The notes under the pieces: generated by a model
What the model saw: the letters and a program-made list of their open reading frames with translations, nothing else
The model's database searches: none
What the model was told of the DNA's origin: nothing
From: Thermoplasmata archaeon
Lineage (GTDB): Archaea; Thermoplasmatota; Thermoplasmata; UBA10834
NCBI GenBank assembly: GCA_041559015.1
Contig: JBFFED010000001.1
Coordinates: forward strand, 79,241-143,240
Reading direction: 5' to 3'
DNA length: 64,000 nucleotides
Program-made: the position numbers and the translations under genes
Part shown: positions 6,560 to 40,446 of the stretch, piece after piece
How the letters are laid out: every line of letters starts with the position of its first letter
Position numbering within the stretch: position 1 is the first letter of the stretch

Positions 6560-6580
6560 CGGGAAGAATCGAGGAGGAGG

Positions 6581-6654
6581 CGCCCGAGCTGGGATTCGAA
6601 CCCAGGTCCGAAGCTCCGCAGGCTTCTAGGATATCCAAGCTACCCCACTCGGGC
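6581..6654 (-). tRNA. tRNA-Arg(GCG)
   Basis: Cloverleaf: acceptor GCCCGAG/CTCGGGC, anticodon arm GAAGC-CTGCGGA-GCTTC, T arm CTGGG-TTCGAAT-CCCAG; CCA not encoded. Confidence 0.96.
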
Positions 6655-35622: not shown

Positions 35623-35626
<4 letters not shown>

Positions 35627-38600
35627 TTCAAGTCCTCCAGCTGAAGGCGCATGGCGACCCCAAGCGAGAGCAGCTCGTCTAGGAGCAGCTTGAATGCGTA
35701 CGAGGTTTGCACCTGGTATATCTTCGAGTTGTTGCCGCAGACGGGGCACCTAAGCGTGCCGCGCCTGTCGAGGATCGCGATGTGGCCGCAGTTCGGGTTG
35801 CCGCATACGTACTGGAGCGTGCCGTCAGACTCGTCCAGGAGCCTGTCCTTGATGACCATGGCGGCGCCGTGGCCTATGAGGCAGTCCCTCTCCATCTCCC
35901 CGAACCTCAGGCCGCCCTGTCTCGACCTTCCCTCGGTCGGCTGCCTGGTGAGTATCTGGACCGGGCCCCTGCTCCTGACATGAAGCTTGCCCGAGACCAT
36001 GTGGTGGAGCTTCTGGTAGTAGATGACGCCCACGAACACCTCGGCCTCAATCATCCGCCCGGTGACCCCGTCGTACATGATCTCCTTGCCGTTGTGCTTG
36101 AAGCCGTTCCTGACGAGGGCGTCCCTGAGGGCCTCCTCCCTCTCGCCGCTGAAGGGCGTGCCGTCTATGAGCCTGCCCTCCATCGAGCCGACCTTGCCAC
36201 CAATCATCTCGAGCACATGCGCGACGGTCATACGCGACGGGATGGCGTGCGGATTGATTAGCAGGTCCGGCACGAGCCCGTCCTCGGTGAACGGCATGTC
36301 CTCCTGCGGGACCAGGAGCCCGACAACCCCCTTCTGGCCGTGCCTGGAGGCGAACTTGTCACCCAGCTCCGGGACCCTCTCGTCCCTGACCTTGACCTTG
36401 ACGAGCCTCGAGCCGTTCTCAGACTCGGTGAGCATTACGTTGTCGACATAGCCCATTTCGCCCGGCCTCACGGTGACCGAGGTCTCCCTGCGCTTCTGGG
36501 GCGTCAGGAAGTCCGCCTCTTCCTCCAGGAACCTCGGAGGCGATGTCTTGCCTATCAGGACGTCGCCGCCCTGGACAGCCGTTTCCGGGCTGATGAGACC
36601 GTCCTCGCCCAGGTTACTGTACGACAGGTCGGCTCTCGCCCCCCTGACGTCCGGGCTCGGTATCTCGAAGTGGTCCTCCTGCCCGCCAGGGTATCTGCGC
36701 TCCTCCGCCCTGTAGGTCCTCATGAAGGTCGACCTCCCGAGGGCCCTCTCGACGGAGGATTTGTTCATCACCACTGCGTCCTCCATGTTGTAGCCGTGGT
36801 ACGACAGGATGCCCACTACGAAGTTCTGCCCCGCGGGCCTCTTGTTGAACTCCACGAAGTCCATTGGCTTCGTCGTCGTCAGGGGCTTCTGCGGATAGTG
36901 CAGTATGTGGCTCCTCGTGTCAGGCCTTATCCTGTAGTTGGACGAGCTGAGCCCTAGCGACTGCTTCGCCATGCCCGAGCCCATCGTGACCCTAGGGCTC
37001 GAGTTGTGCTCCGGATACGGCACGAGCGCCGAGCATACCCCGAGTATGACCATCGGGTCGACCTCGAGATGCGTGTGCAGGTCCGTCAGCATCGACTCGA
37101 CGTGCATGGTCCCGCCGCAGTGCTTGCACTCCAGGAGGACCTTGCCATCGTCTCCCGGGTTGCGCCACTCGACGTCGATCTCGGAGAGGAACTTCTCGCA
37201 GTGCTCACAATTCTGAGGTGTCTTGTAGGCGAACACGGCGATGTATGTGTCCTCCTCCTCCTCGGCGTCGATCCACTCCACCACGCCCTCCCTGATGAGG
37301 TCTGACCAGCGGAGCTTCTTGGAGCGCATCTCCTCGACGTGCCTCCTGGTCATCATCGTCTTGCCGTGCCTGACGACGAGCAGCGGCCTCCTGAGCCTGC
37401 CCTCGTCGCAGTTGATTATTATCTCGTTCATGTTGTCGTCGAAGCGGACGTTGACCTCCGAGGACAGCAGCCCTGAGCGCCTCCTCTGGCGGACCTCCTC
37501 GACCAGCTCCTTCGGCTTGTCATGGAGCCCTATCAGGTCGCCGTTGACGTACACCCTCGTCTCGGTGGTGTACTGCTCCCCGACATCCTTGACCCCGAGA
37601 TCCTTCAGCAACCAGATGACCTCTTTGTCGTCGTAGCCCTCTGATATGTCTATGATGAGCGCGCAGTTCTTGACCAGCCCGCAGTTCTGACCCTCGGGGG
37701 TCTCGTTGGGGCAGAGCCTGCCCCACTGTGTCGGGTGCAGGTCTCTCGCCTCGAAGTGCGGTTGGCTCCTGGTCAGAGGGGATGTGACCCTCCTCAGGTG
37801 CGACAGGGCGCTCATGTTGGAGGTCCTGTCCAGCAGCTGGGACACGCCCGCCCTTCCGCCGACCCAGTTGCCCGTTGCGAACGCGTGGAGCAGCCTGTGC
37901 GTGAGCAGGTCTGGCCTTATGGCCGACGATATCTTCAGCCCCTTCTTCCTGGTGTACCCTCTCTCTAGCTGGTACTTCAGGTCCTTGATCAGGTTCGTGA
38001 AGGCGACCCTGAAGAGATCCTCCATGAGGTCGCCCGCGAGCTTCAGCCTCTTGTTGGCGTAGTGGTCCTTGTCATCCTCCTTCCTATGGCCGAGCTCCAG
38101 CTCGAGGATGGTCCTCGCCATCCTGCCCAGGAAGATGGACTTCTTGAGCCGCGCATCCGCGGTGTCGCCGAGGTGCGGCAACAGCGAGCGGTCGATGATG
38201 CTCTCGACCTTCTTCGCCCTGTACTCCTTGGCCTGCCCGGTTGCGAACTTCCTCTCGAGGAACAGTATGGCGTCCTCGGTCGTGTAGATGCCGTTCGGGG
38301 GGTACAGTTTCTTGTTCTGGCACTCCTCGATGTTGGCGTACACGATGTTGGCCATCTGCGGGTCCGAGACGATTGCCTTGAAGATGGCCTCGTCGCTCTC
38401 CATCCCGAGGGCCTTCATCAGGACCACGAGCGGTATCTGGCCGGAGGCCGCTGGGACGGACACTACGAGCATCCCGTCCTTCTTCTTCTCCATGAGAGTA
38501 AGTGCGCGGTAACCCTCCTTCTGCGAGAACACCTTGGCAACGTGCAGGCTGGTGCCGTAGCGCTCGTTGAGCTCGACCATGACCCTGTTTGGCGCGAGGT

Positions 38601-39213
38601 CCTCGAGCGATATCAGCGCCCTCTCGGTCCCGCCTATGATGAAGTACCCGCCGGCGTCGCACAGGTCCTCGCCCTGCTTCACCAGGAACCGTCTCAACTC
38701 CTCCTCGTTGGGTTCTCGGTCCGTCTCGATGTTGTCCTTGTGCAGGTTGCACTTCTTGGACTTGATCATCACTGGCAGGTCTCCGATGTGGACCTTCTCG
38801 GGCTCCCTCTCGATGCCGTCCTCGACGACCGTGAACTCCAGGTATATCGGCGCTGAGTAGTTCAGGTTCCTGAGGCGGGCCTCCATCGGGTAGAGGTCGT
38901 GCGTGGCGCCGTTGGCCTCCTTGATGACCGGCCTGCCAACCGATATCGACGGCCTGGCGTTGGTGTCGATCTGGCCCGTCTTCGGGTCGCGCCTCCGGCC
39001 GATGTAAATCTCGATAATCTTGCCCTCTGTCCTGTCCGGGTCCAGCCTGATGATGCCCCTCTCGGCCTCGTCGGGAGACGCACGGACGTTGTCCACTATC
39101 TTCTGCATCCTGCTGTTCGGATGGTCTATCGTGGGGAGGAAATCGTTGTATGACGCGATGTGGTGGTTGACGATGCTCCGCTCCCCGAAATAGGTTTCAA
39201 CAAGTTCTCTCAC
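35623..39213 (-). CDS. rpoB: RNA polymerase subunit B (unsplit)
   Basis: [32 protein letters not shown]. Confidence 0.98.
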
Positions 39214-39217
39214 AAGT

Positions 39218-39475
39218 CTACCCCCTTACGACAAGACGATAGCAGACGCTGACACCGCTTGTCTCGCTCCGCCTGACGACCTTCACAACCATTCCCTCTT
39301 CGACCGGGCCTGCGATCGCGTCCAGTGCGCGGATCGCTGGATCACTCAGTCTCATCTTCGGAAGCTGATCCTTGGTGAGCTTGAGCCCACCCAGTATCTT
39401 CTCGGAGTCCTTCTCCGACAGGAGATGATGCTCAGGGACGAGCTCATGCTCCAACACGTTGAATTCTTCGACCAT
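39218..39475 (-). CDS. rpoH: RNA polymerase subunit H
   Basis: HELVPEH, QLPKM..SDP, RRSETSG..YRLV. Confidence 0.96.
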
Positions 39476-39559
39476 TTGGATTCACCCCGCAGTCTGAAGG
39501 CTGGTCACGGTGCGCATCTTCCCTCGTTTCTCCCCGCACTTGCAGATGGGTCCGACCGC

Positions 39560-39706
39560 TGGCGGGCCCGCGGGGATTTCCGAGACTAGTCTGTTAGGCA
39601 TAGTCATTCGAACCCCGGGCCACCTGCTTAAAAGGCAGATGCTCTTTCTAGGGAGTCTGCGATTTCGAAAATGCATCATACTCCTACCTAGCTGAGCTAC
39701 GGGCCC
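39560..39706 (-). tRNA. tRNA-Lys(TTT) with two non-canonical introns (39646-39685 at position 20/21; 39577-39606 at position 59/60); CCA encoded
   Basis: Removing 40 and 30 nt gives GGGCCCGTAGCTCAGCTAGGTAGAGCATCTGCCTTTTAAGCAGGTGGCCCGGGGTTCGAATCCCCGCGGGCCCGCCA, a 77-nt cloverleaf; BHB-like pairing at both junctions. Confidence 0.92.
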
Positions 39707-39954
39707 TGGGCGGTGCGGATACCCTAGGCTGCGTTAGCAGGGCGTGTAGTCGCTTCAGGTATATAACACTTGTCCGGATTTCAACCTTCTTGTCGGTCAG
39801 ATGCGATTATCGTATTTATTTCACTGCGATTATCATTTAATCAGTATCATAAAATCGTCTTTCTCAGCAACAGTTTTAATCCTTCCCATGGCGCACCATC
39901 GGCTCGATGGGCGCATTCGTGTAATGCATATCGTCTTCAGACGATATGCGGCGG

Positions 39955-40446
39955 TCAACGTTTCATTGCCGAGACGAACACGCCCACATGCTCCTTGGTC
40001 TGCTCGATCCACCCGTCCGCCAACGGACCCTTTGTATCCTTCACGGCAACGTGAAGGACCCTGTCCACCACGTTCAGGCCTCTTGCCCTTGCGAGATCCC
40101 TTAGTCTCGGCCCGCCGCTGTAGACCCATTTCTGCACGCTCGCCTTCTCCTTCTCGTCTGCGGGCTCAGACTGCGGTGGGGCGACCGTCACGAATATCGC
40201 AATCGGCTTATTCCTCCAAGACTCGTGGTCGATCTTCTTCACGAACCGTCTGGCCTTTCTCGAGGCCTTGGCGAATCTGATTGGGGAGCCGATGAACATG
40301 AAATCCCCATTCGGCGGTGACTTGTGCTTCTCCCGGAGGCTCCTCAGCTCTGCGTCGTGGCCATCGGCCGTGATTTGACCCGCTATCGCCTCGGCGACCT
40401 TCTTCGTGTTGCCGTAGTATGTGTCGTAGATGACTACTCCCTTCAT
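39955..40446 (-). CDS. Flavodoxin-domain protein
   Basis: IYDTYYGNTKKVAEAIA, FIGSP. Confidence 0.85.
   Translation of the reverse strand: MKGVVIYDTYYGNTKKVAEAIAGQITADGHDAELRSLREKHKSPPNGDFMFIGSPIRFAKASRKARRFVKKIDHESWRNKPIAIFVTVAPPQSEPADEKEKASVQKWVYSGGPRLRDLARARGLNVVDRVLHVAVKDTKGPLADGWIEQTKEHVGVFVSAMKR

Follow-up and report, generated by a model that had tools for sequence, protein, structure and literature searches.

Two bulge-helix-bulge introns hide the tRNA-Lys(UUU) gene of a Thermoplasmata archaeon

Introduction

Positions 20/21 and 59/60 are listed among the known non-canonical sites of archaeal tRNA introns in the excerpts of Yoshihisa 2014 (PMC4090602), which for Euryarchaeota, with their alpha4 or alpha'2 splicing endonucleases, give fewer than 10% (~8%) of tRNA genes as intron-bearing, with one intron each at the canonical position 37/38. 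Here we describe a tRNA-Lys(UUU) gene that carries introns at both 20/21 and 59/60 in a 64,000-nucleotide (nt) stretch of DNA from a Thermoplasmata archaeon (GCA_041559015.1, contig JBFFED010000001.1, positions 79,241 to 143,240; this whole stretch is hereafter the window, and coordinates without a contig name count from its first letter). A relaxed HBh' intron in the D-loop of Methanopyrus kandleri tRNA-Glu is described in the excerpts of Kaneta et al. 2018 (PMC5829648), according to which the alpha'2 enzyme of Archaeoglobus fulgidus and the loop-less M. kandleri enzyme remove that D-loop intron inefficiently in vitro. The same excerpts state that loop inserts correlate with tRNA gene disruption, that only loop-bearing enzymes are efficient on non-canonical introns, and that Lys44 is the key lysine of the Crenarchaea-specific loop. 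Excerpts of Hirata 2019 (PMC6379350) class the A. fulgidus and Thermoplasma acidophilum enzymes as narrow, and report that the former can cleave a relaxed 37/38 motif within a full-length precursor.

Full-text searches on Thermoplasmata, Thermoplasmatota, Methanomassiliicoccales and Euryarchaeota, with subscription journals outside their coverage, found no paper on such introns in those groups, and a full-text search for D- and T-loop bulge-helix-bulge introns in Euryarchaeota returned only a review and an Aeropyrum pernix paper. One software record comes close. In the part of tRNAscan-SE 2.0 Supplementary File S1 (PMC8450103) available to us, a 139-nt LysTTT gene of Candidatus Methanomassiliicoccus intestinalis Issoire-Mx1 is marked 'novel' relative to v1.3, with no mention in the body of that paper; it is the same isoacceptor in the same class, and 139 nt fits a 77-nt tRNA plus introns of ~29 and ~33 nt such as those of the Methanomassiliicoccales loci that we parsed. 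It is probably an ortholog, with orthology and intron positions judged from length only, and intron-aware software therefore probably detects such a gene already.

Results

The unspliced gene occupies 147 nt on the minus strand (39706-39560), with its parts arranged as follows.

39706-39686, minus strand: exon 1, 21 nt; 5' strands of the acceptor stem and D-stem with U8-A9 between them, and D-loop through position 20
39685-39646, minus strand: intron 1, 40 nt, position 20/21, in the D-loop
39645-39607, minus strand: exon 2, 39 nt; rest of the D-loop, 3' strand of the D-stem, UUU-bearing anticodon arm, variable loop, 5' strand of the T-stem, and T-loop through position 59
39606-39577, minus strand: intron 2, 30 nt, position 59/60, in the T-loop
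39576-39560, minus strand: exon 3, 17 nt; U60, 3' strands of the T-stem and acceptor stem, discriminator G, and gene-encoded CCA end (39562-39560)

When a script joined the exons at these coordinates, ARAGORN called the 77-nt product as a single tRNA-Lys(ttt) gene with a CCA end. Its cloverleaf has an acceptor stem of 7 base pairs (bp), a D stem of 4 bp, a T stem of 5 bp, the T-loop UUCGAAU, and an anticodon stem of five pairs to which ARAGORN's drawing adds an A26-U44 pair. ARAGORN called nothing on the precursor with both introns kept and did not call tRNA-Lys when a single intron was removed; run with -i on the product retaining intron 1, it gave a spurious tRNA-Phe(aaa) and no other call. 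The unspliced gene was likewise missed by ARAGORN and by Rfam at gathering score, and the sole tRNA found in the window was tRNA-Arg(GCG) at 6579-6654. There is no intron at the canonical position 37/38. We also looked for a C/D-box small RNA within intron 1 and dropped the idea by eye, the intron being 40 nt long and its box-like words not conserved among relatives.

Each intron presents two 3-nt bulges on opposite strands with a 4-bp helix between them, and this core is intact in both. The central helix of intron 1 pairs the D-loop CUAG of exon 1 (39691-39688) with CUAG at 39651-39648, and is flanked by a 5' bulge of G39687, U39686 and, beyond the splice site, A39685, and by a 3' bulge of A39647, A39646 and, beyond the splice site, A39645. 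Its inner stem, GGAGU (39684-39680) with ACUCC (39656-39652), abuts the central helix, while A14 and G15 lie unpaired between that helix and the D-stem, which serves as the outer helix; they face the 3' bulge, so that the 3' splice site sits in a 2x3 internal loop, a relaxed HBh'-like form. Intron 2 pairs the T-loop UUCG of exon 2 (39612-39609) with CGGA (39582-39579), with A39608, A39607 and, past the splice site, U39606 as the 5' bulge, and A39578, A39577 and, past the splice site, U39576 as the 3' bulge. Here the T-stem abuts the central helix, and one extra unpaired U (39583), facing the 5' bulge, separates the central helix from the inner stem of GACUA (39605-39601) with UAGUC (39588-39584). 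In the minimum-free-energy (MFE) fold U39583 instead pairs with A58, giving a 5-bp helix and a 2-nt bulge; by eye, some relatives (for example loci L030 and L034) have a strict intron 2. The MFE fold of the 147-nt precursor contains the acceptor, D, anticodon and T stems together with both intron helices, at an energy (z = -1.9) matched by 8 of 200 shuffles, which is weak evidence by energy alone.

The central helices use C16-G18 and U54-G57, and G19 lies in a bulge. The elbow of a tRNA is held by the contacts G18-psi55 and G19-C56; with these nucleotides occupied, the elbow should be unable to form before splicing. The first-pass annotation had placed the introns at the positions given above, with cuts after the second bulge nucleotide yielding a 77-nt tRNA that ends in CCA, and had listed the four helices with their bulges and the absence of a 37/38 intron. 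Its boundaries proved exact in our minus-strand reading, every helix and bulge is present, and scripted joining and ARAGORN returned the product it described; the unpaired A14 and G15 and the extra U39583 are our additions to its account. Its proposal that the junction helices draw on D- and T-loop exon sequence and that the precursor probably refolds is sound in our judgement, since the elbow needs those nucleotides. We consider it confirmed that this is a genuine tRNA-Lys(UUU) gene hidden by two bulge-helix-bulge introns.

Relatives preserve the same structure while changing its sequence. Pairs anchored on the splice sites, with no alignment, were read in 94 unique intron-1 contexts and 70 unique intron-2 contexts. 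The intron 1 central helix is CUAG/CUAG in 93 of the 94, with a U-G in the remaining one. In 69 of the 70, the intron 2 central helix pairs UUCG with either CGAA or CGGA. The bulges are near-invariant in both sets, and individual inner-stem positions take up to six pair types. With the intron 2 inner stem in its best register, 47 of 70 contexts have one nucleotide left unpaired and 20 have no such nucleotide, so the small deviation seen here is common in the class. RNAalifold, applied to 79 unique double-intron precursors, recovered the cloverleaf and both motifs, with compensatory changes in 16 of 41 pairs and changes on both sides in all six intron-1 and all five intron-2 inner-stem pairs. 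Paired cells make up 96.7% of this structure, whereas column shuffles give 88.3% and none of 500 attains the real figure. The significance of this comparison is overstated, given the kinship of the sequences and the use of one alignment both to predict the structure and to score it. Sliding the partners by 1-3 columns lowers paired cells to 33-52%, and this control, together with invariant exons beside varying introns, is a stronger argument than the shuffles.

To survey relatives in a manner unbiased as to introns, we searched 40 of them with RpoH, the RNA polymerase subunit encoded just downstream, and read the flanks. Within the same order, all 25 loci (this genome, 21 same-family loci and 3 sister-family loci) carry both introns, with exons 100% identical and intron sequences differing. 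In other families of the class Lys(UUU) adjoins rpoH in 9 of 13 genomes: two of these loci have three introns (20/21, anticodon loop and 59/60), two have 20/21 and 59/60, one has 20/21 only, two have 59/60 only, and two have no introns, so that seven of nine keep at least one of the two introns. A second, wider survey scanned one genome per species for the 20/21 arrangement, a pattern that selects intron 1 by construction, and returned at least 118 records with a 20/21 intron. Of the 80 listed titles, the ones more specific than the phylum were mostly Thermoplasmata or Methanomassiliicoccales, with one Methanomicrobia; the others gave only the phylum (Thermoplasmatota) or 'archaeon'. Of 148 extracted loci 147 could be parsed, and these comprised 115 with both non-canonical introns, 18 with intron 1 only, 7 with all three introns, 5 with intron 1 and an anticodon-loop intron, 1 with intron 2 only and 1 with none. 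Judged from these sequences, the two-intron arrangement is old and widespread in the class Thermoplasmata and not peculiar to this genome.

Within its own genome the gene appears to stand alone. The assembly (1.78 Mb in 83 contigs, 59.8% G+C, 87.9% complete) holds 35 tRNA genes by the Rfam tRNA model, none of them Lys(UUU). A second 'tRNA-Lys(ttt)' called by ARAGORN at C2:23792-23875 is a false positive, with a mismatched acceptor stem, a weakly paired 3-bp D stem, a flawed T stem and no Rfam support, and BLAST of the spliced sequence against the assembly matched nothing besides this locus and its Lys(CUU) relative. Rfam, ARAGORN and BLAST thus gave no credible intron-less tRNA-Lys(UUU) elsewhere in the 88%-complete assembly; the first-pass annotation had named such a copy, together with the lack of a spliced product, as what would speak against it. 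As far as this incomplete assembly shows, the split gene stands as its sole credible Lys(UUU) gene and sole decoder of AAA. Codon AAA is rare yet in use, with 4 occurrences against 63 of AAG in rpoB.

A genome-wide double-splice scan tested 303,989 candidate pairs and yielded 11 ARAGORN calls spanning both junctions, of which only two loci were both well formed and not already-known tRNA genes: Lys(UUU) and Arg(CCG). Because only two such loci emerged, and because the structure is conserved with covariation, we take the Lys feature to be beyond chance. The tRNA-Arg(CCG) gene (C23:19272-19395, plus strand) has 22-nt introns at 37/38 and 59/60, both strict motifs, and was missed by ARAGORN and Rfam; BLAST matches over essentially the whole gene with its introns occur in 23 of the 40 relatives, nearly all of the same order. 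The tRNA-Thr(CGU) gene (C16:10871-10978, minus strand) has a 29-nt strict intron at 20/21, with A14 and G15 inside the central helix. Rfam detects it, ARAGORN miscalls it as Trp(cca) with an 11-nt intron, and matches over nearly the whole gene with its intron occur in 25 of the 40 relatives, again nearly all of the same order.

Splicing at the canonical position restores a recognised tRNA in five further genes (Gln-CUG, Glu-CUC, Ser-GGA, Leu-UAA and Lys-CUU), and a long Tyr gene and a long gene at C2:49144 appear by eye to have anticodon-loop introns. The latter (C2:49144-49252, minus strand) is labelled by ARAGORN as 'Ser(cga)' with an intron; by eye its loop reads CU-CAU-A followed by a 32-nt insert, which would make the gene a canonically interrupted CAU tRNA (Met or Ile2), the third of its kind in the genome. 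In all, about 10 of 37 tRNA genes carry some 12 introns, four of them at non-canonical positions, and the other resolved introns of the genome fit the strict motif.

A strict scan in the manner of SPLITS examined 120,070 candidates, recovered both Lys introns and gave 25 ARAGORN calls after single splicing; a relaxed single-splice scan examined 1,641,729 candidates and gave 163. Nine new-looking loci from the relaxed scan were rejected for mismatched stems in all of them, and a 'Trp' candidate on C12 and a 15-nt match on C65 were, by eye, not tRNA-like and had the look of coding sequence. The expectation that introns would be found in other tRNA genes is borne out by Arg(CCG) at 59/60 and Thr(CGU) at 20/21. 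That of more cryptic split tRNAs held in part: these further intron-bearing genes exist, and no trans-split tRNA was seen, split genes elsewhere in the genome not having been searched for systematically. Lys(UUU) itself is not a split gene in that sense, all three exons being colinear within 147 nt. ARAGORN, Rfam and the splice scans of the assembly turned up neither a tRNA-Gly, whatever the anticodon, nor a tRNA-Trp; these genes are either on unassembled parts or disrupted beyond the reach of the scans.

The genome encodes one recognisable splicing endonuclease. A Pfam search of the whole assembly matched PF01974 and PF02778 in a single open reading frame (ORF) on contig C4 (C4:34988-36040), which encodes 351 amino acids (aa) from an ATG and carries two copies of both the N and the C domain. 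Of the solved structures, the engineered M. kandleri beta-alpha fusion 5x89 comes closest (E = 1.6e-36, residues 3-344 against 17-352), followed by A. fulgidus alpha'2 EndA (E = 3.4e-26, with gaps in the N-terminal unit), and T. acidophilum EndA matches the last 85 residues only. The C-terminal, catalytic unit is colinear with Methanocaldococcus jannaschii EndA (1a79; residues 7-170 against 5-169) with no insertion, and where the A. pernix alpha subunit has 10 extra residues, Lys44 among them by count, this EndA has none. The C-terminal unit, the one that keeps the Tyr-His-Lys triad, aligns with the catalytic regions of both 1a79 and 5x89. In the N-terminal unit, by eye, Phe and Trp stand at the places of the catalytic Tyr and His. 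The protein is an alpha'2-type EndA whose structural unit is full-length and whose catalytic unit has no specificity-loop insert, and from its type it would be expected to act as a dimer. No gene for a second EndA subunit and no three-unit chain turned up in the Pfam search of the 88%-complete assembly. The first-pass annotation had expected a relaxed-specificity endonuclease resembling (alpha-beta)2 or epsilon2 enzymes, and had suggested examining endA architecture and a specificity loop. We found instead a single two-unit ORF of alpha'2 type, colinear with the M. jannaschii enzyme and devoid of the A. pernix Lys44 loop. The ligase RtcB is represented by a PF01139 match at C10:2-538 that is cut by the contig end.

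Full-length EndA homologs were found in 39 of the 40 relatives searched. G013, of the same genus, gave no match; the form in G039 is merely short and divergent, and in G035 the match is split. G039, a class-level relative with a complete 1.5-Mb genome, has an EndA frame of ~299 aa (C1:551099-551929) that matches well only over residues 257-351, and in the other 12 class-level families the match covers most or all of the 351 aa, in two pieces in G035. Lys(UUU) is intron-less in G039, with its short EndA, and also in G031, with a long one; since intron-less genes occur with both forms, we draw no conclusion on EndA form and introns.

The surroundings of the gene comprise the following features.

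39707-39766, minus strand: upstream region with a TATA-like TTATATA (39766-39760) and the 5' leader; read by eye, with a putative promoter role
39218-39475, minus strand: rpoH, RNA polymerase subunit H, 85 aa (PF01191, E = 1.1e-24), just downstream of the Lys gene
35623-39213, minus strand: rpoB, a single unsplit 1196-aa ORF and not separate B' and B'' genes, following rpoH

The Lys gene lies ~85 nt upstream of rpoH, with no T-rich terminator visible between the two, and the unsplit rpoB presumably fits the placement in Thermoplasmata. The TATA-like box could serve either the Lys gene or a divergent plus-strand ORF that starts near 39801. The 5' leader is nearly invariant across the family while the introns vary. 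Its ACCGC (39714-39710) is complementary to GCGGU in the trailer (39559-39555), and relatives have ACGCC/GGCGU or CGCCGCC/GGCGGCG in these places, changes that are compensatory by eye. We rejected this helix as a third bulge-helix-bulge, as it forms a 3x4 internal loop beside the acceptor stem.

Matching sequence was present in 20 public runs, including 2 RNA libraries (0.05 share of words). Contigs of the two RNA libraries (X19 and X20) and of X1 and X5 over window positions 39000-40000 contain no joint at either intron, though contigs cannot show rare forms. Records 12, 13 and 15 are tRNAs of other organisms that match exon 2 only. A 350-nt contig of library X20 (record 14; window 39348-39658) joins a relative's unspliced tRNA gene to rpoH, and could be a co-transcript or carried-over DNA.

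Discussion

We conclude that this locus, with its exactly restored cloverleaf, its conserved and covarying introns and the EndA and RtcB genes of its genome, is very probably the organism's tRNA-Lys(UUU) gene, whose transcript EndA cuts and RtcB joins. In the pathway that we propose, transcription would yield a precursor of some 147 nt flanked by leader and trailer, in which the acceptor, D, anticodon and T stems would form. C16-G18 and U54-G57 would each pair with the 3' end of an intron to make the two bulge-helix-bulge motifs, the two-unit alpha'2-type EndA would cut after the second nucleotide of each bulge, and RtcB would join the three exons. Only then would the elbow between D-loop and T-loop form, giving the 77-nt tRNA with its encoded CCA. 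We infer that cleavage takes place, that the cuts fall exactly at these sites and that an alpha'2 enzyme tolerates the two small departures from the motif.

Several observations weigh against this conclusion. Neither intron has the strict hBHBh' motif (offsets of 2 and 1), the EndA of this genome has no specificity loop, and in the assays excerpted from PMC5829648 the alpha'2 enzyme of A. fulgidus removes the relaxed M. kandleri D-loop intron inefficiently. The RNA-library contigs that cover the gene (X19 record 11 and X20 record 14) are unspliced, and 88% completeness leaves room for an intron-less copy or a second endonuclease subunit on a missing contig.

A reading that differs in the enzyme holds that the alpha'2 EndA has broadened its range by a route other than L1, L2 or L3 loops, for example through its full-length structural unit, letting D- and T-loop introns persist class-wide. 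We regard it as possible, though on balance unlikely. Both Lys introns depart from the strict motif, and the 47 of 70 intron-2 contexts with an unpaired nucleotide facing the 5' bulge extend this to relatives. The 351-aa EndA has a complete N-terminal unit that aligns end to end with 5x89, whereas T. acidophilum EndA corresponds to its last 85 residues, and the one short-EndA genome at class level, G039, has an intron-less Lys(UUU). The intron load, about 10 of 37 tRNA genes, also exceeds the ~8% cited for Euryarchaeota in the excerpts of PMC4090602. However, the catalytic unit has no insertion relative to the narrow M. jannaschii enzyme, the core that the enzyme reads (3-nt bulges and a 4-bp helix) is intact in both Lys introns, and the other resolved introns of the genome are strict; moreover, G031 combines a long EndA with an intron-less Lys(UUU), and the correlation with the short form rests on one genome. 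We would go further only as speculation, and hold it doubtful, that most Thermoplasmata, unlike the cultured Thermoplasmatales that serve as the textbook example, carry a long loop-less alpha'2 EndA that handles relaxed D- and T-loop motifs by an undescribed mechanism, and that class-wide retention of both introns in the single tRNA-Lys(UUU) gene beside the RNA-polymerase operon reflects function and not neutral persistence. If the introns were retained for a function, gating elbow formation or a modification step would be a candidate.

A relaxed-specificity (alpha-beta)2 or epsilon2 endonuclease, as in Thermoproteales and ARMAN-2, is very improbable here. Multiple, non-canonical introns are the hallmark of organisms with such enzymes according to excerpts of Fujishima et al. 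2011 (PMC3239211) and PMC5829648, but the genome shows one EndA ORF with neither a second subunit gene nor a three-unit protein, the A. pernix Lys44 loop is absent, and the same full-length EndA recurs in 39 of 40 relatives. That the locus is a decaying pseudogene or chance look-alike whose insertions are never removed is scarcely credible, for although standard finders do not call it, its fold energy is unexceptional (z = -1.9) and the RNA-library contigs are only unspliced, its exons are identical across the order while its introns diverge with compensatory changes, splicing at its sites yields a flawless cloverleaf ending in CCA, no other Lys(UUU) gene came to light, and the arrangement persists across many families of the class.

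Taken as the tRNA-Lys(UUU) gene of this organism, the locus belongs to a known kind, archaeal tRNA genes interrupted by several bulge-helix-bulge introns, and its intron positions are on record as well. The host is the less expected part: in a class of Euryarchaeota, broadly defined, a loop-less alpha'2 EndA occurs together with conserved, slightly relaxed D- and T-loop introns in an essential single-copy tRNA gene; this stands in mild tension with the generalisation that alpha'2 enzymes are narrow, and does not overturn it. There is also a practical side. With the only Lys(UUU) gene and Arg(CCG) both invisible to ARAGORN and Rfam, such genomes seem to lack decoders of AAA and CGG unless an intron-aware search is used.

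Among described systems, canonical 37/38 introns with the strict hBHBh' motif share with those of the Lys gene the two 3-nt bulges, the 4-bp helix and, presumably, the EndA and RtcB chemistry. They differ in that the introns here lie in the D- and T-loops, build their central helices from conserved elbow nucleotides and leave extra unpaired nucleotides facing one bulge per intron. The multi-intron tRNA genes of Thermoproteales and ARMAN-2, as described in excerpts of PMC4090602 and PMC3239211, likewise carry at least two bulge-helix-bulge introns at positions that include 20/21 and 59/60, and are missed by standard finders. Those organisms, however, use (alpha-beta)2 or epsilon2 enzymes equipped with specificity loops, and introns are far more numerous in their tRNA genes, in contrast to the loop-less alpha'2 enzyme and about 12 introns in 37 genes found here.

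M. kandleri pre-tRNA-Glu(UUC), in the excerpts of PMC5829648, matches this locus in a euryarchaeal setting, a relaxed-motif D-loop intron and a host EndA that has no specificity loop. Its EndA is encoded by separate alpha and beta genes, whereas here there is one ORF. The second intron of the M. kandleri tRNA-Glu is canonical (37/38), whereas here it is in the T-loop of another isoacceptor, and the mature M. kandleri tRNA was seen by RNA sequencing, whereas that of the Lys gene is predicted from gene sequence. A class that combines a loop-less alpha'2 EndA with conserved relaxed D- and T-loop introns is thus a natural test case for the loop rule, one that extends known biology and adds no new kind of system to it.

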